A DNA stretch of 58,764 nucleotides from an uncultured Gammaproteobacteria bacterium (GTDB taxonomy: Bacteria; Patescibacteriota; Patescibacteriia; SBBC01; CAIJZX01), in NCBI GenBank assembly GCA_964383765.1, contig CAYLHT010000006.1, positions 1 through 58,764 of the forward strand, given 5' to 3'. The position numbers and the translations under genes were made by a program. Below are positions 34,014 to 54,413 of the stretch, piece after piece. Positions within the stretch are counted from its first letter, which is position 1, and every line of letters starts with the position of its first letter. The notes below the pieces were generated by a model. That model saw only the letters and a list, made by a program, of their open reading frames with translations, ran no database searches and was not told where the DNA came from.

Positions 34014-34865
34014 CTATAACGGGCTCTGGATACTTTTCAGTTTCGGGTTTGTCACCTGGGTGTACCGCTGGGTGGTCCGGATATTGTCATGTCCAAGCAA
34101 AACTTGCACATAGCGAATGTCCGTGCCGTTTTCGAGCAGGTGCGTAGCGAAACTGTGGCGCAAGCTATGGAATGTGGCGGGTTTGTTGATCCTGGCTTTG
34201 GCCAGCGCCTGTTCAAAAATCTTTTGGGCCGTTCGGGTCGTCAGCTTGCCGCCCCATTCGCTTGGAAAAACCAGGTCACGTCCTACCCTTCCAGAAATCA
34301 TGCTTTGTAAATCGCCAACTAATTTTTCAGGTAAAACGCTGATGCGATCTTTTCGGCCTTTGGCTTGCTTAATGTGAATCGTCTTTTCCGTGAAATCAAG
34401 GTCTTGAACTTTCAACACTACAACTTCACTAACCCGCAGCCCGGCGCCATAAGCCAGCCCCAGCATCAGCCGGTGTTTCGGATTCGTGGTGACGTCCAAC
34501 ATCCGGGCAATCTCTTCGCGTGACAAAACGATCGGTAAACTATGGCTTCGCTTGGCAGTCTGAATCACAATCGGCACACTTGTGCTTTCAATGTGCCGAT
34601 AGTAAAACTTCAAGGCGCTCAAACACAGGTTGCGAGTTTGTGGGGACGCCCCCCGGTTCTCAAGCGCCAACAAGAATTCCTTAATCCGCGCTTCGGGCAT
34701 ATTCACCGGCACGTCAAACTGAAACGCCAAAAAACCCTTCACAAAATACAGGTAGGTTTTGAGTGTTTTTGGGCTATAATTCCGTAGTCGCAATTCGGCT
34801 TCGGTTTTGTTGAGTTGTGAGTCAAAATTTTCCATAATAAATAAGTGGCTTTCTTGCCACCACAT
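34014..34865 (-). CDS. tyrosine recombinase, integron-integrase-like but short (Xer-length)
   Basis: Catalytic signature GAGLRVSE (R), KGRKDR (K), HSLRHSFATHLL (HxxR), LLGHDNIRTTQRYTQV (H..Y). The motifs are close to IntI1, from my recollection of its sequence (LDFDHGTIIVREGKGSKDR, ITKPATPHTLRHSFAT, LLGHSDVSTTMIYTHV, ...RSPL). Only about 58 aa separate KDR and HxxR. An alternative start is the ATG at 34835. Confidence 0.85.
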   Translation of the reverse strand: MWWQESHLFIMENFDSQLNKTEAELRLRNYSPKTLKTYLYFVKGFLAFQFDVPVNMPEARIKEFLLALENRGASPQTRNLCLSALKFYYRHIESTSVPIVIQTAKRSHSLPIVLSREEIARMLDVTTNPKHRLMLGLAYGAGLRVSEVVVLKVQDLDFTEKTIHIKQAKGRKDRISVLPEKLVGDLQSMISGRVGRDLVFPSEWGGKLTTRTAQKIFEQALAKARINKPATFHSLRHSFATHLLENGTDIRYVQVLLGHDNIRTTQRYTQVTNPKLKSIQSPL

Positions 34866-34913
34866 TTGTCCTAACGCGACCCTAGCACAGCCTCACAAAA
34901 TAAGCAATAATGG

Positions 34914-34954
34914 TATTATTATACGAACCAAGTTCGCATAATAACGAGATAGGC
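34914..34954 (+). other. attI-like site / first junction (G|ATAGGC at 34948/34949)
   Basis: GATAGGC (34948-34954) is the exact complement of GCCTATC, which opens attC-like site 1. It is preceded by the hairpin TATTATACGAAC-caa-GTTCGCATAATA (34917-34943). Confidence 0.6.
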
Positions 34955-35066
34955 GAAATAGTGCCCTTATTGACAGGAATTTAGTTTCTCGATAAGATTC
35001 TGTGTTCTTTCACAACAAATACTTTTAGGAAGCTTGCTCACGTCGCTTGGAAAGGAGGGTGCCACA

Positions 35067-35294
35067 GTGTTCACGACTCAAAGTACGCTTTCGGTGCTCA
35101 CTGGCTTCGGGTTCATCGCCGCCTGGATTTTTATCGGTTTCTTCGGCATTCACCTCTGGGCGGCCTGCTTTTCAGTGCCTCTTACCTACCGCTGGAAAAC
35201 GTGGCTTGCGATCGTTTTTGGACCCCTGACGTTTTGCCTCGTGGTCGTGTGGATCATCGCGGCTGCAGTGGACGATGTCGTCGAAGATCTGTGA
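35067..35294 (+). CDS. cassette 1: small two-TM membrane protein
   Basis: GTG start 7 nt after AAGGAGGG, in frame with ORF 35034..35294. TTGACA-17-TAAGAT promoter-like boxes at 34969-34997. Confidence 0.5.
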   Translation: MFTTQSTLSVLTGFGFIAAWIFIGFFGIHLWAACFSVPLTYRWKTWLAIVFGPLTFCLVVVWIIAAAVDDVVEDL

Positions 35295-35368
35295 ACGCTC
35301 CTTGTTTCCTTTGCGGGAAGGCCTCGCTTTCCCGCTTCCTAAAAGTATTTGTTGCCGCTAGCACAGTA

Positions 35369-35424
35369 TGCACTACCTCGCCTATCAGCGCGTATACGCC
35401 AAATAGGTTCGGCGTATGACGCGC
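35369..35424 (+). other. attC-like site 1 (short simple-hairpin class)
   Basis: GCCTATC-A-GCGCGTATACGCC-aaataggttc-GGCGTATGACGCGC-AAAC-GTTGTAT. One extrahelical G in the 3' arm. Confidence 0.8.
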
Positions 35425-35504
35425 AAACGTTGTATGCCATAGCGAACATGAAGAGATAAGTGCCTCGATCTCGGGGCGCGTGCCCCAAGTCCGAGGCACA
35501 CATG

Positions 35505-36088
35505 TTCGCCACCGCATACAACAGCGGATATGAGACGAAGGAAATCGGGTTTGGTTTTTAGTAAGTGAAAAAATAGCAGGCTTGGTAGCCTGTTATTTCG
35601 CTTCAGTGAAGATAGTTTTTCAGTCGTTAATCTTCTTCGGAATACACATCACTAATTTCTCGCCGAAGATTATCTAATTCATCATACTTTGCCTGTGATT
35701 CTACAGTAACAACGGGGGTGCTTGCGCCAGGCTTGGGCATGATCTTGCTCATTTCTTCATCGAGTTTTTCCACAATTTGTGGCATACGCATATTATCAGT
35801 AACTTCAATAAACTTTGCCGCACGGTCCCGAAAAGCTTTTTTTGATTCTTCCGTCATTGGTCCCCAAGTCCGACCCTCAAAATCTTCCGGCATATATAGT
35901 GACATTATTAGTTAATATATGGGAAAAATAACATGTGCCCACAAATAAAACAAGTGTTCATTGTAGCTTATTGACAATGTAGCAACCAAACCCGATTTCC
36001 TTCGTGCAAATTGCTACCTCGCTCCGGCGGTGGTAAAATTGTACCGCCGGATCGAAACAGCAACTTCTCATATCCGCAAACGTTAGGA
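35505..36088 (+). other. attC-like site 2 (branched class E, carries an ORF in helix-2 loop)
   Basis: ATACAAC-AGCGGATATGAGA...TCTCATATCCGC-AAAC-GTTAGGA. The inner helix CGAAGGAAATCGGGTTTGG / CCAAACCCGATTTCCTTCG encloses 35627..35905. A third hairpin lies around GGCGGTGGTAAAATTGTACCGCC. Confidence 0.7.
35627..35905 (-). CDS. hypothetical acidic protein (92 aa) located inside attC-like site 2
   Basis: AT-rich ORF. A minus-strand terminator hairpin (AATAACAGGC..GCCTGCTATTTTTT) lies at 35558-35587. Confidence 0.5.
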   Translation of the reverse strand: MSLYMPEDFEGRTWGPMTEESKKAFRDRAAKFIEVTDNMRMPQIVEKLDEEMSKIMPKPGASTPVVTVESQAKYDELDNLRREISDVYSEED

Positions 36089-36191
36089 GAAATAACGCCT
36101 CGCTTGTCTATTGACAGACAAGCACATATATGCCAGGGTTCCCTGGCTCATTAAGCTAACCAAAAAAGTGCACTCCTTCAGGAGGTGCGGC

Positions 36192-36584
36192 ATGACAGCG
36201 AAAGATCCGGAGAAAACTTGGGGGATCGCCCTAAGAGCCGCTAAGAACTATCTCGAGGGCGAGATCCAGAAGCATGAGTGTGGCGATCTTCTGGTAAAAC
36301 TGGAAGATCCCAAGGTTCGTCTCCTCGTGGGCCGCAACGTCAAGTTCCTGCGAACCGTGCAAGGTTTAACAGGATCAGAGCTTGAAGTGGTTGCGGGGTT
36401 GTCCAAGAACCTGGTCGGGAAATTCGAGTCAGGGGTCAAGGTCAACCCACGGTATGTGCTCATGATGGCAGCCACGTTCAAGGTTCTGCCGCACCTCCTG
36501 TTCCGGGAAGACCTGATTGAGCACCTGCGTGGCGTGGTCGCTCAAGAAATCAAAAGGTTCGGGGAGGAAAATCCTCGGTCATAG
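36192..36584 (+). CDS. cassette 3: XRE-family helix-turn-helix protein
   Basis: Trimmed to the ATG after AGGAGG. LRTVQGLTGSELEVVAGLSKNLVGKFESGVKVNPRYVLMMAATF is an HTH_XRE-like motif. Confidence 0.6.
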   Translation: MTAKDPEKTWGIALRAAKNYLEGEIQKHECGDLLVKLEDPKVRLLVGRNVKFLRTVQGLTGSELEVVAGLSKNLVGKFESGVKVNPRYVLMMAATFKVLPHLLFREDLIEHLRGVVAQEIKRFGEENPRS

Positions 36585-36655
36585 CACGTTGGAGGAAGGG
36601 GGCTCGCTCTCTTCCTCCACCCCTTTTTGTTATATTAGAAGCGAGGCGTTACATC

Positions 36656-36794
36656 TCCTAACAGCGCGTAACCGACGCGGTTTCTGGCGTCCGGCGAAGC
36701 CTGCCGCTTGCGAAACCGCTACATTTGCTGGTGTTTAGCCGCTCCGCGGCGTATGATAACACCAGCAAAAGTCGGTTACGCGCGGACGATAGCT
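36656..36794 (+). other. attC-like site 3 (139-bp three-helix class A)
   Basis: TCCTAAC-AGCGCGTAACCGAC...GTCGGTTACGCGC-GGAC-GATAGCT. Inner hairpins are GCGGTTTC..GAAACCGC and TGCTGGTGTT..AACACCAGCA. Confidence 0.85.
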
Positions 36795-37057
36795 GAAATT
36801 CCCTTTTTATTTTTCCGGTTTATCTACCGGAAATACAAAAAACTTTTTTAATTTCTTCTGTTATACTTTTTTTACTTTCCTGCCTGAATTAACATTATTG
36901 CTAGCTCAGGTAGGAGCACCAGCAAGATTCTGCTGATGCTTAAGGTGCTGTGGTCTCGCCCAAGGATTATGGTTTGCCTTGGATCCCCACTCTAGGGCAG
37001 GCGTCGCGGGCGCGACTTAAAGGCCTGACCTTTGGCTCGGTCCAGACTTGTCGCCGA

Positions 37058-37660
37058 TTATCCCTTGAGGAGATAATCGAGCATGAGATGCCAGGACTTC
37101 ACCCAGTCAAAATGTTCCTCACGGAACACTTCGGGATCGGGCTTGTCCTTGCAAATCTCGTACAAGTCGTTGTGACCGAATGGCTTGACCGGGTCACCGC
37201 CGCGCTCATAGGCATTGATCCAGCCCCTGTTGTTCGTCAGGAGCACCCGGCACTCGCCGACCATGAAAGGCGTCGGTTCAGCCTCACTCGCGTTGAAAGC
37301 GTCGAGGCAGGCAGAGGCGGGATGAGCGTGATGGTTCGAGTCGGTCAGCAGGCCTATGCACTTGGCGCCGTTTTTGATTGCGGCGTAAAGTACGAGGAAG
37401 ATGCCAACAGGCATCTCCTGGCCAGCATACGACATCCCCCGGTTGCCAAGGAGCGCAGCGCTGGCTGGCATGAGCAGATCACAGAGCACCACGTCGTACT
37501 GCTGACGGACGCTCTGGATGCTCTCCAGGTGCTCCCCGATCACGAACATGGCCTGCATCGCTTCGTCATACGACGAAACGGCGGTCACATCATGGTCGGC
37601 GAGCTGCGCTTTGGCAGCCCCCAAGTGTTTGGGATTGTCGTCGATCACGAGGATCTTCAT
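37058..37660 (-). CDS. cassette 4: CheY-like receiver-domain protein with unknown C-terminal extension
   Basis: MKILVIDDNPKHL...YDVVLCDLLMP has receiver-like acidic residues. GGGAGGTGA SD, TTGACA hexamer at 37744-37749 (minus), GC-rich. Confidence 0.55.
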   Translation of the reverse strand: MKILVIDDNPKHLGAAKAQLADHDVTAVSSYDEAMQAMFVIGEHLESIQSVRQQYDVVLCDLLMPASAALLGNRGMSYAGQEMPVGIFLVLYAAIKNGAKCIGLLTDSNHHAHPASACLDAFNASEAEPTPFMVGECRVLLTNNRGWINAYERGGDPVKPFGHNDLYEICKDKPDPEVFREEHFDWVKSWHLMLDYLLKG

Positions 37661-37829
37661 GCGGTCACCTCCCGATTGGAGTGGGTTTTGGTCAAAGGTC
37701 TAGCTAAAACGAGACCGGCCAGCATAGCATGGCCAATTCTTTTTGTCAATAGTTAGGCCAACTATAGAAATTAAAAAAGTTTTTTTGTATACGTTCCGTC
37801 AAAACGGAACAAAATAAAAAGGGAACATC

Positions 37830-37954
37830 AGCTATCAGCGCGTAAGCGGCTCCGGCTTACTCCGTTCCTCCGTAAGCCTGCGCCTAAGTTGCGCGAGTGT
37901 CGCCTTCGGCATATTATACACTCGCGCAACTTCGCTTACGCGCGGACGTTGTGC
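37830..37954 (+). other. attC-like site 4 (125-bp three-helix class B)
   Basis: AGCTATC-AGCGCGTAAGCG...CGCTTACGCGC-GGAC-GTTGTGC. Inner hairpins are GGCTTAC-tccgttcctcc-GTAAGCC and TTGCGCGAGTGT..ACACTCGCGCAA. Confidence 0.85.
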
Positions 37955-38045
37955 GCCATCGTGTTTTTTTGTAAAACAAATGAGACCCTTATTTATACTC
38001 CTTGGGTCTCAGTAGGAGTGTGGGCGCCTAGCCCTTCTATGAACC

Positions 38046-38393
38046 TTACGATTTCAGATATGCGGGCTTGTCCTCGACGAACAGTCGCCCCTTGCGCAGG
38101 TCCGTAGCGTAGACGCCCTCGACCATACGAAGGTGCGGCCACTTGCTGTCGGTGACATACGCGTTGAAGTGCCAGACATCAGCCGCACCGTGCAGAACGT
38201 CGTCGTTTTCTGCGCCAGCCGTGGTCGACCCTCGCGCCAGTTGATCGATGAACATGTGGATCGCGCCCAAGCCACCGAGATGCATGATGACTGGGAGGCG
38301 ATGGCCGTGCTGGTTGGTTTCTCCAGCACCCAACGAAGCGAGCAGATTATACTTGCTCGGTCCGTCGACGACGTTCAACGGTTGCTTTGACAT
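38046..38393 (-). CDS. cassette 5: hypothetical protein (115 aa), GC-rich
   Basis: Trimmed to MSKQPLNV..., preceded by GAAGGAGA. TTGACA hexamer at 38513-38518 (minus). Confidence 0.5.
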   Translation of the reverse strand: MSKQPLNVVDGPSKYNLLASLGAGETNQHGHRLPVIMHLGGLGAIHMFIDQLARGSTTAGAENDDVLHGAADVWHFNAYVTDSKWPHLRMVEGVYATDLRKGRLFVEDKPAYLKS

Positions 38394-38554
38394 AACGAAT
38401 CTCCTTCTGTAAGGAGCCTGGCGCACTTGTACGGCGGCGCCCACCCTTCTCCGTTTCCGGAGGGCTCGATCATCCGATCGAACAAAGTAGGTTAGCATGA
38501 AATGCTGCAATTTGTCAAGCCCGAATGTTTCTTAAAACGAAAAAACACGACAGC

Positions 38555-38693
38555 GCACAACAGCGCGTAACCGCCTCGGTTTCTGGCGTCCGGCATAGCC
38601 GTCCGCTTCCGAAACCGCTACATTTGCTGGTGTTTAGCCGCTCCGCGGCGTATGATAACACCAGCAACAGTCGGTTACGCGCAAACGTTGTCC
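38555..38693 (+). other. attC-like site 5 (class A)
   Basis: GCACAAC-AGCGCGTAACCG...CGGTTACGCGC-AAAC-GTTGTCC. Near-identical core to sites 3, 7 and 15. Confidence 0.85.
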
Positions 38694-38779
38694 GAAAATT
38701 TGCCTCCCTCGTTGTAAGATAAGCGCGGTTTCCATAAAATAAAGATGGTTGTTACTCTTCCTAAGGTATAGCAGACAAT

Positions 38780-39373
38780 ATGTCCCTATTTAACAAACGT
38801 TTAGATTCGTACGATAGTCAGGTACTCCAAACTCTTGAGAACCAAGTGAACGTATTATTCTCAGTACTTGGAGAATCGCCAAATGAGATGCATAAATTGG
38901 CCAAGAAGTTTCTTGATCAAAGTATTAGGTTATCAGAAAAGAATGGATATCGACATAAAACCAATCTTGGTGATGAAAGAATAAAGGATGTGACTTGGCT
39001 AAACAAACGAATAGCTGAAGGGTTGACCGCGGAAGACTGTAAAGATTTCTGGAATCGTGCACACGAAGTGATCTTGGGTGAATTTATCATTAATGATGTT
39101 TGGAGAAGGGGTCGAGCAAATGCATACAAGCTAACTGGGATGTCCTGGGAAGATGCTGTTAAAAGGGTTCAAAAAGATCACATCATTTATGGCGAACCAG
39201 ATCAAATTGAAGGAGGCTTCATTGGCGACAGTCGGTATATTTATCCTGAATTTGCGAAAAGATTTGAACACTGGAGAAGTACTGTCACCACCGAGCAAGA
39301 AGTAGAGCTATCTCAAAAGTATGAGACATATAATGCAATGGTTAGGGATCTGATCATTAAGAACAAAATCTGA
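38780..39373 (+). CDS. cassette 6, gene 1: hypothetical protein (197 aa), AT-rich
   Basis: Clean ORF with no recognisable motifs. Confidence 0.5.
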   Translation: MSLFNKRLDSYDSQVLQTLENQVNVLFSVLGESPNEMHKLAKKFLDQSIRLSEKNGYRHKTNLGDERIKDVTWLNKRIAEGLTAEDCKDFWNRAHEVILGEFIINDVWRRGRANAYKLTGMSWEDAVKRVQKDHIIYGEPDQIEGGFIGDSRYIYPEFAKRFEHWRSTVTTEQEVELSQKYETYNAMVRDLIIKNKI

Positions 39374-39381
39374 AGACGCAA

Positions 39382-39789
39382 ATGCCACAAACGAAATATG
39401 ATCAATCAATAATAAAAGAAGCGGTCCGCCACATTCAGAACGAATGGGATAATTTCAAGATATGTTATCAACAGTTGCACAGCCCAAACAATGCTATTTA
39501 CTTTGAATGTTTCTTATTGCACGCTCGGAATTTATATGATTTTTTCTTTACACCCAAGAAAATAAATGATGATGTTACTATAACCGACTTTGTTCCTTCT
39601 CCTTTAAAAGGTAATTCATACGTATTCCCAAAAGAGGCGATAAATAAACAGCTAAGCCATATCACATATTCAAGAGTTATTAATCCAATAAATTTATTCC
39701 CGGAACAGGATCAAATCTATTCCTACATCCACAACACACTTATCGATTACAATAATATTGCAGATGAGAGATACCGAATAACGGAATGA
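39382..39789 (+). CDS. cassette 6, gene 2: hypothetical protein (135 aa), AT-rich
   Basis: ORF 8 nt downstream of gene 1, probably co-transcribed. Confidence 0.5.
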   Translation: MPQTKYDQSIIKEAVRHIQNEWDNFKICYQQLHSPNNAIYFECFLLHARNLYDFFFTPKKINDDVTITDFVPSPLKGNSYVFPKEAINKQLSHITYSRVINPINLFPEQDQIYSYIHNTLIDYNNIADERYRITE

Positions 39790-39827
39790 AACCGCGCTTA
39801 TCTTTATGGGTCGGTCGGCAAATCTAC

Positions 39828-39885
39828 GGACAACAGCGAGTCATACGAAATAGCAAGTACTTCGTATGACTCGCAAACGTTGTAC
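39828..39885 (+). other. attC-like site 6 (short simple-hairpin class)
   Basis: GGACAAC-A-GCGAGTCATACGAA-atagcaagtac-TTCGTATGACTCGC-AAAC-GTTGTAC. Confidence 0.85.
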
Positions 39886-39959
39886 GAAATGGAGCGAGGT
39901 TTATGTAAATGAAGAGACCGCCCACAACGCGTTAGCGTGGGGCGGCCTTTGTCGCTGAT

Positions 39960-40262
39960 CTACAGCAACTTGAACGTACCTACAGGGCGATCGGCGTTTT
40001 CGTCCGTGGACTCGACGACCCATACGTTCGGTACCACACCCGGAACGTACTTGAGACGTCGGATCGTGACCCCTTGGAACCGGGGCGAAGACACATACAG
40101 CGCGATGCCTTCCTTGTCGCCGTACCCGATTGAAGTCACTGTTCCCGCGATCATGTGAGAGCTACCGAACAGGAACGGCCGCCCCACGATCTGCGTCGGA
40201 TTGTCGGGCAAACCACAGTCCGTAAGTGCTTGGCCGAACTGCGCTTCGTTCAACTGGAACAT
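39960..40262 (-). CDS. cassette 7: hypothetical protein (100 aa), GC-rich
   Basis: Trimmed to MFQLNEAQ..., preceded by AAGGAGGA. TTGACA-17-TTAAAT boxes at about 40332-40360 (minus). Confidence 0.5.
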   Translation of the reverse strand: MFQLNEAQFGQALTDCGLPDNPTQIVGRPFLFGSSHMIAGTVTSIGYGDKEGIALYVSSPRFQGVTIRRLKYVPGVVPNVWVVESTDENADRPVGTFKLL

Positions 40263-40380
40263 CGCAATCCTCCTTGTCGTTGCTACGTACACAGAGAGTG
40301 GCTGGCCAAACCTGGTGCGAACGAACTGGGCATTTAAGCACAGTTTCTCTGTACTGTCAAGGCCAACCTCGCTCCAAATC

Positions 40381-40519
40381 GTACAACAGCGCGTAACCGA
40401 CGCGGTTTCTGCCGCCCGGCGAAGCCGTTCGCATTCGAAACCGCTAAGTTTGCTGGCGTTAAGCCGCTCCGCGGCGTATGATAACACCAGCAAAAGTCGG
40501 TTACGCGCGGACGATAGTC
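40381..40519 (+). other. attC-like site 7 (class A)
   Basis: GTACAAC-AGCGCGTAACCGAC...GTCGGTTACGCGC-GGAC-GATAGTC. Confidence 0.85.
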
Positions 40520-40807
40520 GAAATATTTATTTTCTTTTTTCGGGCTAACGCCCGATTGTTTACAAAAATTTTCCAATTTCTTTTTCTCTTGAATAGAGGG
40601 GAAGTGGGTGTTTTCTCCGCTTCGCTGCGAAAACGCTTTGTTTTTGAGGGGAATCTAAAATAGCAAAACGAAACTGGGGAAAGCATGTTAATTCGCTGAA
40701 ATACGTCATTTCTCATGAAAATAAAGCTCTTCATCATATACCGGCTTGACAAGTAATATACATACGTTATACCCTTACTCAGGGTATATAATTATAAAAG
40801 GTGGTAT

Positions 40808-41029
40808 ATGGCAGCGGAATTAAGCAAACGCGACCGTTTCAAAAAACTGGCTGTTTATCGTACAAACGAAGTTTTGAAGCGACTCAAGGTCCTAGGAAAT
40901 TGTTCAAATAGAAGTGCGTACGAATACACTGAGGAAGAAGTAAATAAGATTTTTCAAGAAATTGACCGCCGGACTAAGGAAGTAAAGTCAAAGTTTTATT
41001 TTCCTAAAAATCGAAACTTTCAGCTGTAA
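40808..41029 (+). CDS. cassette 8, gene 1: small basic protein (73 aa)
   Basis: First ORF of a tightly coupled three-gene operon (TAATG overlap with the next gene). Promoter-like TTGACA-16-TATACC at 40746-40773. Confidence 0.5.
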   Translation: MAAELSKRDRFKKLAVYRTNEVLKRLKVLGNCSNRSAYEYTEEEVNKIFQEIDRRTKEVKSKFYFPKNRNFQL

Positions 41030-44989: not shown

Positions 44990-45014
44990 GTTAAATTATT
45001 TTTGAGAAAACGCC

Positions 45015-46392: not shown

Positions 46393-46439
46393 GCTTTCTT
46401 GAAACAGTCACCTGAAGAACAACGCCGAGATTTTACGGC

Positions 46440-46551
46440 GCACAACACGGCGTATACGACATCCCTTCCTCTCTTCGGGGGTAACTCGCACAGCTCGATA
46501 TTCTACCCCCTGCGTTCAGTCGGGACGGTCGTATACGCCGAAACGTTGTAC
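46440..46551 (+). other. attC-like site 10 (112-bp class C)
   Basis: GCACAAC-ACGGCGTATACGAC...GTCGTATACGCCG-AAAC-GTTGTAC. Inner hairpin GGGGTAA..TACCCC. Homologous to site 13. Confidence 0.8.
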
Positions 46552-46631
46552 GCCATGGCGAACATGAAAGTATAAGTGCCTCGACCTCGGGGCGCGTGCC
46601 CCAAGTCCGAGGCACACATGTTCGCCACAGC

Positions 46632-47612
46632 ATACAACAGCGGATATGAGACGGAGGAAATCGGGTTTGGTTTTTTTATAGCAAGAAACCCCCGGAAGGC
46701 ACAGTTGTCCTTGCGGGGGCTGCGATCACGATGATCGCGAAGGTTCATTCAATGGGTAGAGAGTGTTCAGGCCAATGCGACTCGATGGGTCTCGCGGGAC
46801 AACCCATGCAGTCCGGCATACGTAGCCAGGATCTGGCTGGCTGTCATCACCTTACACGGATTCTCAGCATTCACGTCCATTTCGACGTCGTTGATCATGC
46901 CAGATTCGTAGATCCGCACATGAGGCTCGCCGATCTTGTCGTACGCACGGAAGACCGTGAACACCAGGTAATGCGGAAACCACATGGTGGCGCTTCCCTC
47001 GCCGCCGTACAGCCGGATGGTCGCGGTCACTCGCCGAAGCTCGTGCCGAACGTCCTGCGCTGGGGCATCGGGGAACGACCGCTCGAATGGGCCGATGAGA
47101 GCGTCGATCTCGACGATTCGGAACATGTCCGAATAGTACTTCAGCTCATTCTCGGCGCGGTCCTGACGCGAGCCGAAGCCTTTTCGGGACACCGGCGGGG
47201 CCGTTACGTTGGAGCGGTAGAGCTGGATTCCAGGACCGTACAGCTTGGCCAGCTCGGCTCGCAACAGCTCCTCTGCGAGTGACACTGAAAAGGGTCGGTC
47301 GGAACGATGCAGTTTCTTGAACATGGTATTCCTCCCATCACGGGAGCGTATAGGGATATTCCTACACGGCTACCATCTCGGCAGCGAACTAGCCAAGAGT
47401 ATTAACCTCTCTGCTAAATCGCTACCGAGGTACGGATGGAAGAGCTGAAATGAACAAACAGGTCACACTACACTATATACTGGCATTTGTCAATGCCAGA
47501 CACAAAAAACCAATTCCCATTTCCTCCGTCCAAATTGCTGCTTCGTTCCGGCGGTAGTATAATTGTACCGCCTCCACTTCGCAGCAACTTCTCATATCCG
47601 CGGACGTTGTAT
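46632..47612 (+). other. attC-like site 11 (class E, carries an ORF in helix-2 loop)
   Basis: ATACAAC-AGCGGATATGAGA...TCTCATATCCGC-GGAC-GTTGTAT. The inner helix CGGAGGAAATCGGGTTTGGTTTTTT / AAAAAACCAATTCCCATTTCCTCCG encloses 46767..47324. Homologous to site 2. Confidence 0.7.
46767..47324 (-). CDS. hypothetical protein (185 aa), GC-rich, located inside attC-like site 11
   Basis: GGGAGGAA SD 7 nt before the ATG. TTGACA hexamer at 47488-47493 (minus). Preferred over the antisense ORF 46731..47282. Confidence 0.5.
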   Translation of the reverse strand: MFKKLHRSDRPFSVSLAEELLRAELAKLYGPGIQLYRSNVTAPPVSRKGFGSRQDRAENELKYYSDMFRIVEIDALIGPFERSFPDAPAQDVRHELRRVTATIRLYGGEGSATMWFPHYLVFTVFRAYDKIGEPHVRIYESGMINDVEMDVNAENPCKVMTASQILATYAGLHGLSRETHRVALA

Positions 47613-47688
47613 GAAATATACTTTTCCTTTCCGCCTATCGGCTACTGCTTTTCTGAATGAGCAAATTTGATTAGTTACAAAAAGCAAC

Positions 47689-48873
47689 GTGCGAATTCTA
47701 ATTACAGCTGGAGGAACGATAGTAAAAATTGATGATGTTAGACACATCGGGAATTTTAGTACTGGTTCATTTCCAGCAAAAATCGCCGATGCTGCTTTAA
47801 TAAAAGGACATAGTGTTATTTACCTACATGCAAAAAATGCGAAGATTCCGGCTATAAAAAAGAAACTTAAGCTATTTGAGTACGAAACCTACGATGATTA
47901 CGCTCGCCAATTAAAAATCATTCTGAAAAAGAATGATATTGATGTCGCATTTTTAGCAGCTGCAGTATCTGATTATGGGGTCAAACAGTCTAAAGGAAAA
48001 ATCTCCTCATCAAAACCATCACTGGTAATCCGACTTTTTCGTCTGCCTAAGGTAATAAAAGGAGTTAAGAGGTGGTCAAGAAAACCGCTCTTTCAAGTAG
48101 GCTTTAAATTATTATCCGGTGTAAACCAAAAAGAGCTTTTTGAGGTAGCTTATAAATCCAGTTTAGAAAACCATTCGGATCTAACTATAGCTAACGATTT
48201 ATCAAACATACATAAAGGCAAGAGAGGGGTTATTTTAGTTACCCCAGAAAAAGGATTGATTAAACTGCAAGAACCAAAACTAGCCGAAAAAATTATTTCT
48301 TTCGTAGAAAAAAGATCACAAGTACAGCATTTTAGTACAGTTTTATCTCTAAAAAAGAATATCAATAAGAAATTTCGTCGAGAAATTATACTTTTTAAAA
48401 GGCTATGTCACCAGTTAAGTAAACAAGGACATATGCCTGATTTTTATCAGGGTGCCGAATCGGGACACGGTAGTTTGGCTCTAAGAACTAGCAAACATGG
48501 CTTCTTAATTACAGCGCGTGGTAGTAACAAAAAGAGCCTTCGTCCTCATGATGTTGTGTTCGTAAAAAAAGTAGATTGGAAGAAACGAGAAATTTTCGTT
48601 GAATCTGCTACAAATGAAAAGGCTTCTTTTAACGCAATTCTAGTAGCAAATATTTTCAAAAAACTTCCCTCGGTTAAAGCAGTGGTACACACACATAAAT
48701 TCTTTCGGGGTGTTCCGAGTACCGAATTCCCCTTTATGCCCGGCACTCTCCAGTATGCCGTAATACCCGCGCACCTATTTAGGGATAAAACCAGAGTTAT
48801 TAATCTCAAGAATCATGGCTTAATAGCTGTAGGAACTGATTTACAAGAAACTGTAAACCATGTACTACGGTAA
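47689..48873 (+). CDS. cassette 12, gene 1: fusion of CoaB-like (DFP/phosphopantothenate-cysteine ligase fold) and class II aldolase/adducin-like domains
   Basis: N-terminal ILITAGGTIVKIDDVRHIGNFSTGSF and AAAVSDYGV...GKISS are CoaB-like. C-terminal GFLITARGSNK, VVHTHKFF and LKNHGLIAVG are class II aldolase-like. GTG start. Confidence 0.6.
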   Translation: MRILITAGGTIVKIDDVRHIGNFSTGSFPAKIADAALIKGHSVIYLHAKNAKIPAIKKKLKLFEYETYDDYARQLKIILKKNDIDVAFLAAAVSDYGVKQSKGKISSSKPSLVIRLFRLPKVIKGVKRWSRKPLFQVGFKLLSGVNQKELFEVAYKSSLENHSDLTIANDLSNIHKGKRGVILVTPEKGLIKLQEPKLAEKIISFVEKRSQVQHFSTVLSLKKNINKKFRREIILFKRLCHQLSKQGHMPDFYQGAESGHGSLALRTSKHGFLITARGSNKKSLRPHDVVFVKKVDWKKREIFVESATNEKASFNAILVANIFKKLPSVKAVVHTHKFFRGVPSTEFPFMPGTLQYAVIPAHLFRDKTRVINLKNHGLIAVGTDLQETVNHVLR

Positions 48874-49576
48874 TTCGTACAAAAAGTTCCCAGGGCTTTA
48901 CGATTTGTTATATCAAAGGTTTCTAAAAACTGTTCCAGATTTTGTATCTCTGGTTAAGAAGAATACTCCAAAAAGAGGCCTCATTTTAGACTTAGCTGCT
49001 GGAACTGGCGAAGTGACAATCCCCTTGCTACGTCACGGATTTACCGTGGTGAGCCTAGACGCCAGCATAGGGATGCTCAAACAATTACAAAAAAAAGCAA
49101 AAATGGCTGGAATAAAGAAGTATCGCACGAAAGTGCTTGATATGAAAAAATTGAACTACCAGGGTAAATTTGATGTAGTCTGTATACGACAGGCAATCAA
49201 TTATTTTATGGGAACGCGGTCACTAACATCAGGGCTAAAGAGAATTAACGCATCGCTCAAGCGGGATGGTAAGTTTATTTTTAATGCTCCAAATTATCAA
49301 GGTCAGAAAAACTACAAGACCACCTATCATTATTACAATAAAGCATCACAAAGCGCTGTCGTTGTTGAAACAAACACTATCGAAAGAAAAACTTTAAGGC
49401 ATACCCAGTATTCTATAGTTTGGCGGAATAACAATATGCCAACTTTCGTAAACGACGAAAATTCTTTTTATATATTTACAAAAAAGGAATTTGAGAGTTC
49501 TTTAAAAAAGAGTGGTTTTTCAAAGATTCGATTTAGTGGATCCGCTAAAACACTATATGGTGTAGCAACAAAATGA
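48860..49576 (+). CDS. cassette 12, gene 2: class I SAM-dependent methyltransferase
   Basis: LILDLAAGTGEVTIPL is motif I. Overlaps both neighbours. Confidence 0.7.
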   Translation: MYYGNSYKKFPGLYDLLYQRFLKTVPDFVSLVKKNTPKRGLILDLAAGTGEVTIPLLRHGFTVVSLDASIGMLKQLQKKAKMAGIKKYRTKVLDMKKLNYQGKFDVVCIRQAINYFMGTRSLTSGLKRINASLKRDGKFIFNAPNYQGQKNYKTTYHYYNKASQSAVVVETNTIERKTLRHTQYSIVWRNNNMPTFVNDENSFYIFTKKEFESSLKKSGFSKIRFSGSAKTLYGVATK

Positions 49577-50472
49577 GCCCTGCGACCAAAATTTGGATAA
49601 ATGGAAAAATAGTTTCTATTAAAAAAGCTAGCTTCTTTAGCTTCCACCAGGGTTTAAACTATGGTGCTTGTGTTTATGATGGAATCCGCTTTTACAAAAA
49701 CAAAAACGGTTCGGCGATTTTCAGGTTAGATGACCACCTGAAACGGTTTCTTTACTCTGCGTCAGTTTTGGAGATGGATCTGGGGACTAGTAAAAAAGAA
49801 TTCCAAAAGGCAGTAATCGCCCTAATAAAAGCAACCAAGCTTTCATCTGGATACATTCGGCCAATAGCATTTTACTCCGAGCCTAAAATGGGCATAAATA
49901 TTATCGGAGCAAAATTAACCGTCATGATCCTTGTATGGCCGTGGAGAAATGAGAAGAAAGAGAGATCTGTGAGCATGAAGATTGTCAAACAAAGACGACT
50001 CGATCCAAGAACAGTAGACTTAAAGGCAAAAATAGGCGGATATTATGCAAACGGATTACTAGGCTTTATTGAGGCACGTAAAGAAGGCTTTGATGAACCA
50101 TTATTTCTTGATACGAACGGATTTATAGCCGAGGGGGCAGTTAATAATATTTTTGTTATTAAAAATAAGACTATTTATACTCCGAAACTAAAAACTATTT
50201 TGGGCGGAATTACACGGGACAGTATCATGACAATTGCCAGAAACAAAGGGCTGAGAATTGTTCAGAAAAATATGCGCCCTTATTTTCTTCGTCAGGCCGA
50301 TGAAGTTTTCCTTACAGGTACAGGCATTGAACTCGAACATGTAAAAAGTATTCATAAATTTTTTTCAAAACCAAAATTATCAAATTCTGTATTTGAAAGT
50401 TTGCGGGAAGAATATAGAAAAGTTATTACAGGCGAGTCAACAAAATATAGAAAATGGCTCACGGTAGTGTGA
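49573..50472 (+). CDS. cassette 12, gene 3: class IV PLP aminotransferase (BCAT / aminodeoxychorismate lyase family)
   Basis: GYIRPIAFY, EGAVNNIFVIKNKTIYTP and LGGITRDSI are motifs typical of fold type IV enzymes. Confidence 0.7.
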   Translation: MSPATKIWINGKIVSIKKASFFSFHQGLNYGACVYDGIRFYKNKNGSAIFRLDDHLKRFLYSASVLEMDLGTSKKEFQKAVIALIKATKLSSGYIRPIAFYSEPKMGINIIGAKLTVMILVWPWRNEKKERSVSMKIVKQRRLDPRTVDLKAKIGGYYANGLLGFIEARKEGFDEPLFLDTNGFIAEGAVNNIFVIKNKTIYTPKLKTILGGITRDSIMTIARNKGLRIVQKNMRPYFLRQADEVFLTGTGIELEHVKSIHKFFSKPKLSNSVFESLREEYRKVITGESTKYRKWLTVV

Positions 50473-50559
50473 TAATGACGTGGCCCTGCTGTCACGGTTA
50501 ATCAAATTTGCTCATTCAGAAAAGCGCCTGATACAATCAGGAAAGGAAAAGTATAAATC

Positions 50560-50616
50560 ATACAACAGCGCGTATACGATATACTACGTACAATCGTATA
50601 CGCGCGGACGTTAGCT
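50560..50616 (+). other. attC-like site 12 (short simple-hairpin class)
   Basis: ATACAAC-A-GCGCGTATACGAT-atactacgtaca-ATCGTATACGCGC-GGAC-GTTAGCT. Confidence 0.85.
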
Positions 50617-50719
50617 GAAATGTTGCTCTTGACATGAGGACGCTATCGGTCCAAAATCGGTTATTCGAACTTTCACAATAAAAATATTCTTAGGGGGCGC
50701 CCATGAAAGGAGGAAGTGG

Positions 50720-50941
50720 ATGTCTGAGAACACCAGGCTTCTCTTGGCACGCGTCTATCTTTTGGGCGCGATCGTGATTCTGGTTCTGCTGTTGTTCAAC
50801 GAAGAAAGCCACGTCCTCATTCTCACGCTTATCGGCTGGACCCTCACGCTTCCGATCATCTCGTTTGTTGGTGACCAGATCACAATCAACAAAGCAATTA
50901 AACGAGATGAGGAAAACAGCCGCACAACAGCACCCGAGTGA
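50720..50941 (+). CDS. cassette 13: small two-TM membrane protein (73 aa)
   Basis: AAAGGAGGAAG SD before the ATG. Hydrophobic ORF. Confidence 0.5.
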   Translation: MSENTRLLLARVYLLGAIVILVLLLFNEESHVLILTLIGWTLTLPIISFVGDQITINKAIKRDEENSRTTAPE

Positions 50942-51026
50942 ATCGCCCTTTCTAGAGGAGATGGAACGCCCCCATCTTCTCGCCCCCTAAGAATATTTTC
51001 TCTTTCACATAGCTACGCAACACATC

Positions 51027-51138
51027 CGATAACACGGCGTATCCGACTTCCCTTTTTCTCTTCGGGGGTAACTCGCACAGCTCGAAATTTTACCCCCTAC
51101 GTTCAGTCGGGACGGTCGTATACGCCGAAACGTTGTCG
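51027..51138 (+). other. attC-like site 13 (class C)
   Basis: CGATAAC-ACGGCGTATCCGAC...GTCGTATACGCCG-AAAC-GTTGTCG. Core homologous to site 10. Confidence 0.75.
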
Positions 51139-51172
51139 GAAACTTTCGTCTCATTTTCCTCAAGATTGAAAC

Positions 51173-51742
51173 ATGCCCAAAGACTATATAAAAAAATCAT
51201 CTAGATTGCTGAGACCAAATACTCCATTGGTCTTCGCTGACGGAACACGGGTTTATAAAAAGCTTGCTAAGAAGTACGTTGTTCACAAAGTTGGTTACTT
51301 TATTTTGGCTCCTTCTGGGGCTGGTAAAACGTACTTTATTGAAAATCAAAAGAAAAAACATTGGATGGATGGCGACGAAATTTGGATGATGGGTAAAGCT
51401 CACCCCGAGGGCCAGTGGTGGCTACAGAACATACCAGTCATTGATGAGATTGATCAGCGAAGTGACGTTATTACAATGGAAGCCAAGAAATATGGTTTTT
51501 GGATTATGGGTGCATCCAATTATTGGCTAAAGCCTGATGCCGTTTGTATTCCCGACTGGAACACTCACAGAAGGTTTGTTCTCAACAGAGAAAAAGAAAA
51601 TTATGATGGTGGGGCGACCAGCAAAAGTTTCGACCGCCTGAAAAAAAGTAGAAACTGGATGTCTAGATGGAAAAAAGAAGGAGTTCCGGTCTTTCGTTCA
51701 ATCAAAGAAGCGGTTACATTTTTAGAAAAAAGAGCAAAATAA
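51173..51742 (+). CDS. cassette 14, gene 1: P-loop NTPase/kinase-like protein
   Basis: Walker A ILAPSGAGKTYF. 189 aa. Confidence 0.55.
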   Translation: MPKDYIKKSSRLLRPNTPLVFADGTRVYKKLAKKYVVHKVGYFILAPSGAGKTYFIENQKKKHWMDGDEIWMMGKAHPEGQWWLQNIPVIDEIDQRSDVITMEAKKYGFWIMGASNYWLKPDAVCIPDWNTHRRFVLNREKENYDGGATSKSFDRLKKSRNWMSRWKKEGVPVFRSIKEAVTFLEKRAK

Positions 51743-51743
51743 A

Positions 51744-52631
51744 ATGAGCGCTGAGCACCCCGAGTTTAATTTACCCAAAGAGATTAGTAAGAGCGATTTG
51801 GAGCCTGTTCCTATCGGTCTAGGAGAAACTGAGGTTGTTCTCCAAAGACATGGGAAATACGAACGCTCCATAGAAAGTACCAATGTCGGAAGTCTTTCTG
51901 AAGAGGGACGAGAAGACGTTGAAGCCTTAGCGGGTAGCTTTTTTGAACAACTATTCGAATCAATTCCAGAATCTGAAAGAAAAAACCTCGATATATTGTT
52001 ACTTGCTAGCGATACACAATATAGAGGTGGCGGTCGTCGCTCAATGGAAACGGCGGACCACGTCATGGAAGCGGCAAAAGAAAAAATAGAAAAATACGGA
52101 CTGGGAGGTAACCAACTATTGAATGCAACTGGTCGTTTTCATGGTGATGGCGGAACGAGACCGGAACCAAAATTGAGAGAGCCACAGATGATTGAAAACT
52201 CCCCTGAGTTCCTGGATTTTTTGAAATCAAAGTATGGGGATATGGGTAGGGACTTTTGGATAGCGTTCGAGGAGGATAGAGAAAAAGAGGCTCGAGAACA
52301 AATGGGGGCCGAGGGACCGGATCAGATTGCCGATAGATTGAGCACTGTTGTGGAGACTTTGTCACGATTTAGCAGATTCCATCATGACAAAAACCCAGGT
52401 CGTCGACTGCTCATTTGGGCGGTGACTCATTACGACACCATTAGTCCATACACAAAGAGAGAAATATTACGTACAACCAAGGAAGCTCCCCTAGGAGTTG
52501 ACTACGGCGCTGGCATCGTAATCAAAATCGACGAGAAAGGTGAAAGGAAGGTTCAGCTATCAGGGGACGAGTACACCGTTCCGAAAAGAAAAAGAGAGAA
52601 TGAGACGAAAGCGTCCGACAACAGCGTATAA
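51744..52631 (+). CDS. cassette 14, gene 2: histidine-phosphatase-superfamily-like protein
   Basis: VVLQRHGKYE (RHG motif) and AVTHYDT (second His). The last codons and the stop lie inside attC-like site 14. Confidence 0.45.
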   Translation: MSAEHPEFNLPKEISKSDLEPVPIGLGETEVVLQRHGKYERSIESTNVGSLSEEGREDVEALAGSFFEQLFESIPESERKNLDILLLASDTQYRGGGRRSMETADHVMEAAKEKIEKYGLGGNQLLNATGRFHGDGGTRPEPKLREPQMIENSPEFLDFLKSKYGDMGRDFWIAFEEDREKEAREQMGAEGPDQIADRLSTVVETLSRFSRFHHDKNPGRRLLIWAVTHYDTISPYTKREILRTTKEAPLGVDYGAGIVIKIDEKGERKVQLSGDEYTVPKRKRENETKASDNSV

Positions 52632-52669
52632 ACGATATTGAAACGATCGTTTATACGCGAACGTAGTCG
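52616..52669 (+). other. attC-like site 14 (short class, irregular 3' core)
   Basis: CGACAAC-A-GCGTATAAACGAT-attgaaac-GATCGTTTATACGC-GAAC-GTAGTCG. The core reads G-TAGTC instead of G(T/A)TAGTC. Confidence 0.7.
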
Positions 52670-52714
52670 AAATCGGGCTTCGCTTCTGCAAATACGATTA
52701 AGTTAATAAATTTT

Positions 52715-53599
52715 TTGACAGTCACCGAAATAATAAAACTGTCGCCTGTAAAGGAGACGATCCGCCGCCTCTTTCAGAATAAAGAAACAGAGCTGATTCA
52801 ACGGCCCGGCTCTTATATTTTGAAACTTTTACATGAACCCGAGGAACAGATTTTTAGAATTATCCTACTTCCCCCACATGGCTATACCTCAAACCAGGTG
52901 GACGAAACTTCACCACATCCGGAAGCACGACGAGCAAAAATAACAGTGAAAGGAGGAATCAAGCCACACAATTCTGGTTTTAGTATTTTGAAAGACATTA
53001 TCAAATACCAATACTACAGCGATCGTGACATCAAAATTGCAAATGACTTTCCCTATCCAAAGACTGGTGGCACAGATTTCAAGGAAAAACTAATTTCAGC
53101 AAAGCAAGCTGTGTTCGTTGTCCAAGAAAATGGCATCGGATTTTATCATAACCTGGTGAATCTCTCGCGCGAGTGGGTTCTTCTGGTATTAGAAAAAGAA
53201 TTACGGCTGCAAAAAAATCCACAGATCGAACTTGCGATTCATTCACTCAATGCAGAAGATAAAAGAACATTGCTCACGTTGTATAAAAAGATCCTTCGCT
53301 ACGGCGATTTACTGTTTGATAACGACAAACAGCTTATTAATAAAGTGTGCAATTTTGATGTCACGAAAAGTATTCCTCCTTTGATTGAAATGTTAAATGT
53401 CCACGAAACTGGTAAACATGAAGCATGTACAGTATTTGGAATAATTTTAAAAATTGGAAAAAAGAACCCTGAAAAAGTTCTTAAATATCTGAAAGAGGCG
53501 GCTGTTCAAAAAAGCGCCCCCATTTATTTACTAAAAAAGTTGCAAAAAAAGCTTGGTAGCTTAACAACGGCGAAGCCCGAATCGCCTAACAGCGCGTAG
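52715..53599 (+). CDS. cassette 15: hypothetical protein (294 aa), AT-rich
   Basis: Long ORF with a non-ATG (TTG) start. The 3' end runs into attC-like site 15 (stop TAG at 53597-53599). Confidence 0.45.
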   Translation: MTVTEIIKLSPVKETIRRLFQNKETELIQRPGSYILKLLHEPEEQIFRIILLPPHGYTSNQVDETSPHPEARRAKITVKGGIKPHNSGFSILKDIIKYQYYSDRDIKIANDFPYPKTGGTDFKEKLISAKQAVFVVQENGIGFYHNLVNLSREWVLLVLEKELRLQKNPQIELAIHSLNAEDKRTLLTLYKKILRYGDLLFDNDKQLINKVCNFDVTKSIPPLIEMLNVHETGKHEACTVFGIILKIGKKNPEKVLKYLKEAAVQKSAPIYLLKKLQKKLGSLTTAKPESPNSA

Positions 53600-53718
53600 C
53601 CGAAGCGGTTTCTGCGTCCGGCGTAGCCGTTCTCCGAAACCGCTAAACTAGCTGGTGTTTAGCCGCTCCGCGGCGTATGATAACACCAGCTAGCCTCGGC
53701 TACGCGCAAACGTTAGAC
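53584..53718 (+). other. attC-like site 15 (class A variant)
   Basis: GCCTAAC-AGCGCGTAGCCGA...TCGGCTACGCGC-AAAC-GTTAGAC. Compensatory changes relative to sites 3, 5 and 7. Confidence 0.85.
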
Positions 53719-53811
53719 GCAAATTGGGTTGGGTCTTTGACCAATTTTTCGATTACATGAAAGGAGCCCCGCACAAAGTACGAGGCTCCGTAAGCATCTT
53801 TGGTGAGAGCG

Positions 53812-54144
53812 TCAGGCCCGCGCCGCCGAACCCGAGACCTCCGGCGGGGTCAGGTTCTTGCCCTGGCAGTAGGACGTGACACACTCCTCGATGCCCTGAC
53901 AGATGGATCGCCAGTCGACGACCTGCGTCCTTACGACACGCATCTTGTATCGGTCGACCCACGCGTCCTGGACGCCGTGGATCTTGAAGGATGCGCGGAG
54001 CAAATCGGAACCGCGCACGTCCTTCTCGCTCTTCTCGAGAGAGGATTCCAACAGGGTGACGTCACTCAGCAGAACGTTCGTGTGCAGCCAGGCGCTGGTA
54101 GAATCTCCGGTGGCCTGGTCCCATGCGAACTTGATCTCATTCAT
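53812..54144 (-). CDS. cassette 16: hypothetical protein (110 aa), GC-rich
   Basis: Trimmed to MNEIKFAW..., preceded by GGAGG. TTGACA hexamer at 54263-54268 (minus). Confidence 0.5.
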   Translation of the reverse strand: MNEIKFAWDQATGDSTSAWLHTNVLLSDVTLLESSLEKSEKDVRGSDLLRASFKIHGVQDAWVDRYKMRVVRTQVVDWRSICQGIEECVTSYCQGKNLTPPEVSGSAARA

Positions 54145-54313
54145 CGAAAGAACCTCCAGCGCACAAGGAAGGGGTGGCGCGGGCCCCGTTCTCATGACTG
54201 CCACGAGCACACAGTTGGCCGGGCAGTTGAGAACCTGATACGGTACTCCTAATTAGGCGTGTTGTCAATACCTTGGCGACTGACGCTTATCAAAATTGCT
54301 CAACCCAAACATC

Positions 54314-54413
54314 TCCTAACACGGCGCGTACGAAATGGCTCGGTCGTTCCGGCGGTCAAAAAAGTGTACCGCCCCCACCCTGTTACAAAATCAAATATGC
54401 CGGAACGTTAGAC
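54314..54413 (+). other. attC-like site 16 (terminal, degenerate, class E-related)
   Basis: TCCTAAC-ACGGCG...GCCGG-AAC-GTTAGAC. The inner TTCCGGCGGT..TACCGCC resembles the third hairpin of sites 2 and 11. The 3' core overlaps the tyrS stop codon. Confidence 0.6.

Follow-up and report, generated by a model that had tools for sequence, protein, structure and literature searches.

What kind of system keeps a tyrosine recombinase gene beside some 19.5 kb of DNA that is divided up by palindromes? The question is raised by a stretch of 58,764 nucleotides (the window) on contig CAYLHT010000006.1 of assembly GCA_964383765.1, from a Kerfeldbacteria-like member of the Patescibacteria, or candidate phyla radiation (CPR). 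The element in question spans positions 33990-54425. It consists of a recombinase gene, a recombination site next to it and an array of gene cassettes, and is inserted between the convergent genes galT and tyrS. A first-pass annotation, made from the letters alone, called it an integron-like cassette platform, non-canonical in both its sites and its recombinase and carried by a CPR genome; every testable element of that description held. With a probability of roughly 0.68, this is a chromosomal cassette platform that works like an integron, is built of Xer/dif-type parts, uses a recombinase without the additional (I2) domain of integron integrases, and is not a canonical integron.

The recombinase, of 283 amino acids (aa), is encoded at 34014-34865 on the minus strand. 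Divergent to it lies an attI-like primary site (34919-34959, plus strand), followed by 16 cassettes of 481-3934 nt in a single orientation (34949-54407, plus strand). This layout is shared with integrons. The open reading frames (ORFs) between about 34.9 and 54.4 kb are mostly on the plus strand, and the G+C content there is lower and uneven.

Scripts and direct reading of the whole window place 16 imperfect palindromes on the plus strand at 35,380-54,413, all of the form NNNN(A/T)(A/T)C - A - stem ... stem' - RRAC - G(A/T)T NNNN. The 7-mer that closes one site, R', is the exact reverse complement of the 7-mer that opens the next site, R'', in 12 of the 16 junctions. The recount of this linkage agrees with the number given in the first-pass annotation, and all of its sites were located again. 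The recombinase-proximal junction GATAGGC (34948)/GCCTATC is counted among the 12 perfect (7/7) ones. In the remaining four, 6, 5, 5 and 2 of the 7 positions are complementary, the last of these because the R' of site 14 (GTAGTCG) has a 1-nt deletion. Non-cognate R'/R'' pairs, as a control, reach 7/7 in just 3.7% of cases. Early hairpin scans demanded R''/R' complementarity within one site, and they missed most sites because the linkage rule pairs R' with the next site and not with its own. The chief false positives of the hairpin scan were tRNA genes at L001 12205-12327 and L004 2933-3054 (L numbers denote the comparison loci introduced below), which lie between 14-bp inverted repeats ending in ..ATC C / GGAC GAT... 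and so mimic the geometry of a site.

Intergenic palindromes, which these are, might also be repetitive extragenic palindromic (REP) or miniature inverted-repeat transposable element (MITE) copies, or terminators, with no relation to the recombinase. The closing motif SRRACGWTRKNNG has 17 matches where 2.0 +/- 1.4 are expected, of which 14 fall within the array, all on the plus strand. A 24-nt weight matrix of the closing junction gives 15 matches, all in the array and all on the plus strand, with 0 in the other 39 kb of the window and 0 on the minus strand. Beyond the window, the comparison set holds 84 loci with homologues of the recombinase, 51 of them with more than 1.5 kb of upstream sequence. 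Over the 84 loci, junction-motif matches number 82 on the array side and strand versus 4 elsewhere; so the palindromes go with the recombinase and do not form repeats spread over the genome. Confinement to the array, association with the recombinase and the cassette-specific linkage of neighbouring sites all contradict the repeat or terminator explanation, which the first-pass annotation had itself raised in its genome-wide REP form. It can be set aside with near certainty.

Thirteen sites measure 54-139 nt. The other three measure 573, 632 and 981 nt, much longer than the first-pass annotation implied, because an ORF sits inside the stem-loop. All sites lie on the plus strand. Site 1 (35380-35435, 56 nt, GCCTATC...GTTGTAT) has a bulged G in its 3' arm. 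Sites 3 (36656-36794, with a three-way junction), 5 (38555-38693) and 7 (40381-40519) belong to a 139-nt class, site 4 (37830-37954) to a 125-nt class, site 8 (44328-44453) to a 126-nt class, sites 10 (46440-46551) and 13 (51027-51138) to a 112-nt class and site 15 (53584-53718) to a 135-nt class. Site 6 (39828-39885) is 58 nt long. Site 12 (50560-50616, 57 nt) is of a class also found in L003, L005, L133 and L136, and site 14 (52616-52669, 54 nt) is 93% identical to a site in L005. Site 16 (54314-54413) is a degenerate terminal site whose R' GTTAGAC overlaps the tyrS stop codon.

The long sites are site 2 (35516-36088, 573 nt), site 9 (45015-45646, 632 nt) and site 11 (46632-47612, 981 nt), the last a homologue of site 2. 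Their stems enclose, respectively, ORF 35627-35905 (minus strand), an AAA_33 kinase ORF at 45062-45559 (plus strand) and ORF 46767-47324 (minus strand). Cassette 9 has one gene outside its palindrome and the kinase gene within it, where the stem is 12 bp. A 94-nt ORF-less palindrome (GTTGTAY...ATACAAC) occurs in two copies, at 35429-35522 and 46545-46638. Each copy is the whole body of one cassette, and the genes of these two cassettes, 35627-35905 and 46767-47324, lie on the opposite strand inside the loop of the next site.

Where would such cassettes be cut and joined? R' has either T or A as its second base, in covariation with the R'' of the next site, which puts the exchange point on the 5' side of this base. 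The exchange also falls 3' of the spacer TAACGA, since the primary site retains this spacer of its own in all genomes, whatever sequence comes next. Body and following palindrome are the same in cassettes 2 and 11, with different preceding palindromes; the unit is therefore a body plus the palindrome after it. Taken together, these points put the probable crossover at G|WT on the plus strand (AA|C on the minus strand), and a cassette is counted here as beginning with the base that follows the G of one site and ending with the G of its own. In the primary site this is after G34948. Judged by sequence, the crossover would coincide with the boundary between arm and central region and would agree with the G|TT chemistry of integrons. 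General tyrosine-recombinase geometry would also predict cleavage at this point by a monomer on the R arm.

Other genomes speak to the same position. Contigs of genomes with a homologue end within 400 nt of the gene in 24 of 80 cases upstream versus 4 of 80 downstream, and six contigs stop 2-4 nt past ...AG|TT. On the recombinase side, loci L105 and L133 agree at 99.7% identity over 395 nt, and directly after AACGAG they are unrelated. The earlier proposal of a crossover at the conserved triplet thus maps to G|WT, from spacer conservation, contig ends and this pair of loci. A crossover at the 5' junction (C|A) was rejected because attI keeps its own spacer and bodies travel with the palindrome that follows them.

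The primary site itself is made up of TTATACGAAC (34919-28), CAA, GTTCGCATAA (34932-41), TAACGA (34942-47), G34948 and a right arm ATAGGCGAAAT (34949-59). Its core can be written as GTTCGCATAA-TAACGAG-TTRKNNGAAAT, or in another form as TTCGCATAA-TAACGAG-TTRKNNGAAAT, with a central region of 7 nt. The 17-mer GTTCGCATAATAACGAG of the site is identical in L001-L004. At no more than 3 mismatches, the site is found about 100 nt upstream of the recombinase, divergently oriented, in at least 45 of the 84 loci.

This core looks a lot like dif, which in Proteobacteria reads GGTTCGCATAA-TGTATA-TTATGTTAAAT. It has two inverted arms of about 11 nt around a centre in the 6-8-nt range, and both arms are dif-like: the left arm GTTCGCATAA is identical to the XerC arm of many proteobacterial dif sites, and the right arm, which in relatives is often TTATGTGAAAT, then matches the dif arm TTATGTTAAAT at 10 of 11 positions. 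Hence a second explanation, in which the recombinase is primarily the single chromosome-dimer resolvase of the CPR, 'attI' is its dif site, and the cassettes are hitch-hikers like the integrative mobile elements exploiting Xer (IMEX), entering as folded strands in the manner of CTXphi. It overlaps with a cassette platform and differs chiefly in what the system is 'for'. The dif-like core favours it, and so does the linkage of gene and site, which is known from single-recombinase Xer systems (xerS/difSL and xerH/difH). The central region argues the other way, being 7 nt and not 6. We consider this explanation unlikely, with enough in its favour to be carried through the rest of the argument.

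The palindromes of the array are in turn made of two half-sites in inverted orientation, each built as arm (TTCGNNTAN) - spacer - arm (G WT RK NN GA..). The spacer is 6 nt in the 5' half, as in the recombinase-proximal site, and 9 nt, so 3 nt more, in the 3' half. As in integrons, the cassettes end in an imperfect palindrome with R''/L''/L'/R' boxes, with R' being part of the next cassette. For the boxes the consensus is GWTRKNN, which differs from the integron consensus GTTRRRY; only 3 of the 16 R' boxes conform to the latter, and three sites use GAT/ATC.

The two ends of a cassette match over more than the 7-mer. Complementarity between start and end spans about 22 nt across the 16 cassettes: positions 1-9 are paired, positions 10-11 match in just 3/16 and 1/16 cassettes, and positions 12-22 are paired in 13-16 of 16, with a sequence there that is unique to each cassette. 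The 2-nt mismatch is fixed, GAAAT at cassette starts facing GATGT (reverse complement) at cassette ends. Non-cognate ends give 6.6 of 20 matches. The same pattern, including the mismatch, recurs in 30 cassettes from eight arrays of other CPR lineages. Integrons differ in this respect from what is seen here, where pairing runs about 15 nt past the R box.

For folding, the 3' end of a cassette was joined to its own 5' end, mimicking an excised circle. The reconstituted ends fold to a long hairpin, with an outer stem, a 2-nt internal loop, 9 bp including the R box, a bulge and the L stem. Free energies run from -27 to -37 kcal/mol (z-scores -9 to -13). Of the two strands, the minus (bottom) one gives the more stable hairpin, by a margin of 1.3-4.5 kcal/mol (for site 6, -31.5 versus -27.0 for the top strand), and a bottom-strand G:T pair turns a 1x4 loop into a clean 3-nt bulge. 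In canonical attC sites the bottom strand likewise folds more stably, and extrahelical bases stand on the arm opposite the AAC triplet of the recombined strand (PMC5027507). Here the spacer is largely paired, over 4-5 bp, and the extra bases are on the AAC (cleaved) arm; the extrahelical bases opposite AAC and the unpaired central spacer of canonical attC are absent. As modelled, the folded palindrome would rebuild a dif-like core with a 3-nt bulge.

Is folding needed at all? In Acinetobacter pdif modules, genes are parted by Xer-type sites of alternating orientation, and the array could be read in the same way, as duplex Xer sites that recombine by two-strand exchange and whose palindromy is a by-product. 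Every junction does form an arm-spacer-arm core, the orientations alternate, and genes may occupy either kind of unit (sites 2, 9 and 11). Yet the central region of the crossover junction is 3 nt longer than that of attI and is therefore incompatible with duplex strand exchange. The complementarity that extends at least 10 nt past the arms, into cassette-specific sequence, and the strand-specific stability bias from G:T pairs also count against it. The pdif modules themselves are plasmid-borne, use 28-bp duplex sites of XerC/XerD, have no adjacent recombinase gene, and lack long palindromes or extended cassette-specific pairing. What is found here is a chromosomal context, a single enzyme, unequal spacers and long palindromes, with the alternating geometry in common. 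A double-stranded system of this kind is quite improbable.

What, then, is the recombinase? It is Xer-related, and IntI-like both in its N-terminal part and in its catalytic core. Its Pfam domains are PF00589 (Phage_integrase) and PF13495 (SAM_4 N-terminal); the SAM_4 N-terminal domain is typical of IntI/XerA-type enzymes. The best NCBIfam model is that of integron integrases, TIGR02249, at 218.9 bits versus a cut-off of 265, with the match split at profile position 178. The IntI model NF011946 gives 152.9 versus a cut-off of 435, and archaeal XerA (NF040815) 210 bits versus a cut-off of 220, followed by XerC at 171 and XerD at 166. A search of plasmid proteins returned 'recombinase/integron integrase' matches at merely ~36-40% identity and was uninformative.

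The closest solved relative is VchIntIA, the Vibrio IntIA (2a3v). In the alignment to it, residues 191-212 of the query span 182-246 of the chain, so that about 43 aa are absent at the additional domain. An AlphaFold2 model (predicted local distance difference test score 84) has only short strands and no helix at 191-209, and its best fold matches in the PDB are 2a3v and then XerA. Homologues are 266-318 aa long among the 24 aligned. The enzyme is thus closest to integron integrases, has no I2 and stays below the family cut-offs, which bears out the first-pass view that it deviates from the canonical type: IntI-like, lacking the IntI domain by profile, by alignment to 2a3v and by model.

These results also bear on a canonical integron with a true, divergent IntI and ordinary attC sites. 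The best hidden Markov model (HMM) and solved-structure matches are to integron integrases, and the layout and the G|TT-type crossover (AA|C on the bottom strand) are integron-like. The tests of additional domain, HMM cut-offs (both IntI ones are missed), box consensus and placement of extrahelical bases all contradict it, as does the mostly paired spacer, and it is highly improbable. Further differences from integrons are the dif-like attI and the gene held inside the stem-loop of some cassettes. Archaeal integron integrases keep the additional domain.

The Xer-related enzymes of candidate phyla form a 'Cand' subgroup in Smyshlyaev et al. 2021, who suggest that they stand in for Xer and do not mention arrays. 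Membership of this subgroup, along with conservation across the CPR, supports the dimer-resolution explanation, and the recombinase may double as the Xer of its lineage. Single-recombinase Xer/dif modules (XerS/difSL, XerH/difH, archaeal XerA/dif and 'Cand') share with it a compact enzyme of ~275 aa, an arm-spacer-arm core near dif, linkage of site and gene, and conservation throughout a lineage. The differences here are the arrays after the site, with up to 16 or more cassettes bounded by hairpins, a centre of 7 nt, a position near dnaA and not the terminus in this genome, and a module that is present or absent at this place between relatives. Locus L062 has a second tyrosine recombinase (1046-1870), a 29%-identical paralogue directly downstream of the main one.

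How widespread is all this? Homologues of the recombinase occur in nearly every CPR class at 51-76% identity, and the protein is more conserved than TyrRS, which drops to ~50%. The arrangement of gene, site and array is present in at least 35 CPR genome loci. Among the 51 loci with enough upstream sequence, 34 have at least one junction-motif match, with densities of up to eight or more sites per 10 kb. This spread escaped the first-pass annotation, as did the dif-like attI, the ~22-nt cassette ends with their fixed mismatch, the extra bases on the cleaved arm and the possible second role of the recombinase as Xer.

Other genomes also have the site classes and cassette leaders of the window, placed elsewhere in their arrays and joined to different cargo; site classes are shared within a lineage in integrons too. 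In L115, for example, the cassette 6 leader takes the attI-proximal position, and in L092 and L126 shorter cassettes lie between ends like those of cassette 8. For cassette 8, the leader of ~130 nt (GAAATATTCCTTTTCTTTT..GGGCTA, 40520-40653) and the trailer of ~170 nt (44215-44388) are 78-83% identical to cassette ends in L092, L126, L099, L004, L047 and L064. Those cassettes measure 1.3-2.1 kb versus 3.9 kb in the window, so that frames are conserved and cargo is different. When the cassette proteins were compared by tblastn with all fetched loci, weak methyltransferase and HAD matches were the only sign of shared cargo. What speaks for mobility of the cassettes is thus the sharing of ends and site classes, and not the finding of identical cassettes.

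Two related genomes, L137 and L138 (TyrRS 74% and 71% identical), show what the locus looks like without the module. They are syntenic with the window over 24.5-33.99 kb and again from 54.43 kb on; blastn synteny ends at 33,986/33,988 and restarts at 54,426/54,436. In both, galT abuts tyrS and the whole 20.4-kb module is absent. The comparison of the galT-tyrS interval that had been suggested at the outset thus yields variation in presence and in content, and not a fixed order. The native 3' end of tyrS (TTAGRYC) resembles an R' arm, and may have served as a secondary target for the module.

In these relatives tyrS is followed by a gene for a penicillin-binding protein, dnaN, dnaA and then rnpA/yidC. 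This is a classical origin cluster, so gene order puts the module near oriC, with the primary site ~7 kb (plus the 19.5-kb array) from the dnaN-dnaA/yidC-rnpA genes. In the window, dnaN and dnaA would come just past the right end. In L027, dnaA is 6 kb from the recombinase. A dif site is expected at the replication terminus, and gene-order synteny places this one elsewhere; GC skew, too faint in this lineage and confounded as well by the coding bias of cassettes, locates neither origin nor terminus and so cannot confirm this. Over 19 loci there is no consistent switch of skew or gene orientation at the site. The position near the origin, the absence of the module at the same place in two relatives and the lack of such a switch all speak against a plain dimer-resolution role with passengers.

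Solitary sites speak for that role. Core sites with a proper right arm and no adjacent recombinase gene occur, in oriented coordinates, at L091 1656, L104 10666/L117 5931, L100 1490 and L109 1546, and those of L091 and L104/L117 also stand without an array. The L091 and L127 cores have only an 'empty' palindrome next to them, and the L109 core is in mid-array. Read in code 11, the upstream sequence of L100 and L109 has no ORF of at least 80 aa, perhaps a sign of an alternative genetic code.

A complete core, GTTCGCATAATAACGAG TTAGGATGAAAT, is also found at ~10339 of a predicted viral contig (L128, the same as L140: IMGVR_UViG_3300025065_000185, 44.7 kb), which again suits the explanation by dimer resolution. 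The contig has a terminase-like ORF as well, and a phage may use this core for attachment and so exploit the same recombinase. The other core matches on viral contigs (7 of 8) lack a right arm and look like chance.

At L038, L057, L058, L037 and L054, recombinase and site (~950 nt) are 86-93% nucleotide-identical between loci, and no similarity was detected at >=85% in the flanks on either side. This suggests either extreme constraint or movement of the module.

How might the platform work? An excised cassette or array would fold as single-stranded DNA, preferably as its minus (bottom) strand, and a duplex dif-like core would form again in the fold, its central region interrupted by a 3-nt bulge. 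Cleavage at AA|C would then fall to the monomer on the R arm, which would exchange one strand with attI, and replication would resolve the junction. Such a system may be active at present. Integrons and CTXphi are the models for these steps; in CTXphi, single-stranded attP forms a hairpin, undergoes one strand exchange and is resolved by replication. The cassettes share with IMEX and CTXphi that passengers have no recombinase of their own and pile up in tandem at one site, and that a folded strand, putatively single here, mimics the core site of the host with an imperfect central region. The differences are that the passengers are 0.5-4-kb cassettes without replication or virion genes, and that CPR hosts supply a single enzyme. 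Unlike that of IMEX, integration here looks reversible, because each unit keeps a complete palindrome.

Several points weigh against a cassette platform of this sort. The evidence is all from sequence, and neither a circular-cassette junction nor an excision product was seen. A double-stranded mechanism acting between directly oriented junctions would yield the same products. Since it is the cleaved arm that bears the extra bases, in contrast to attC, the integron analogy for strand choice may fail. With so close a likeness to dif, the primary site may be nothing more than dif; some core sites have no recombinase next to them, and GC skew is too weak to place origin or terminus directly. Also, the recombinase is conserved like a housekeeping gene, with an identity of 60% or more from one CPR class to another, and Smyshlyaev et al. 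treat the 'Cand' enzymes as Xer substitutes.

The cassette platform can be taken one step further. One Xer-family enzyme and a dif-like site, which either is or derives from the dimer-resolution site, would then also serve as the docking point for hairpin-ended cassettes, and the CPR as a whole would have an I2-less integron, an intermediate of the kind long postulated between Xer/dif with single-stranded IMEXs and true integrons. This is a tentative idea, somewhat short of even odds.

As for what the cassettes carry, their G+C ranges from 0.37 to 0.57 versus 0.53-0.57 for the backbone. Most of the cargo has no Pfam match, and in integrons too it is mostly of unknown function. Annotated exceptions are a DNA methylase with a 757-aa partner, a HAD hydrolase and the AAA_33 kinase, and a DFP/aldolase, a methyltransferase and a class IV aminotransferase. 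No recombinase genes were found among the cassette-encoded proteins of the array. An Rfam scan of the window gave rRNA and tRNA only, and a promoter scan 38 matches versus 29.5 +/- 5.1 expected, which is not a significant enrichment. An exact 30-mer from the 139-nt site class had no match in metagenome contigs. Elsewhere in the window are the 3' end of a 23S rRNA (1-325) and a 5S rRNA (585-700), from an rRNA operon that points toward the array, and a tRNA-Ser(CGA) at 7207-7296.

Integron integrases are thought to derive from a Xer-like ancestor that gained the I2 helix, and this gain is held to be the innovation that permits recombination of folded single-stranded sites. If the idea of a CPR-wide integron without I2 is true, hairpin-site cassette capture does not need that domain. 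On the history of these enzymes, Escudero et al. (PMC7790495) note 'the lack of intermediates' between Xer-like ancestors and IntI, and speculate that the ancestor was hijacked by single-stranded IMEXs. The present system either fits their description of the ancestor or is a convergent analogue; it may be the missing link between Xer/dif recombination and integrons. A full-text literature search found no description of cassette arrays with a recombinase of this type; its coverage is incomplete, and an earlier description is possible.

A system with the architecture and cassette logic of an integron, an I2-less enzyme and a dif-like site is thus widespread in a deep bacterial radiation, and integron surveys that demand the IntI domain overlook such platforms. 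If active, it would be a natural and testable example of the hijacked-ancestor hypothesis, or else a striking convergence. It would also account for the way CPR assemblies fragment beside the recombinase gene, and it would be a major route of gene flux in the reduced, symbiotic genomes of the CPR.

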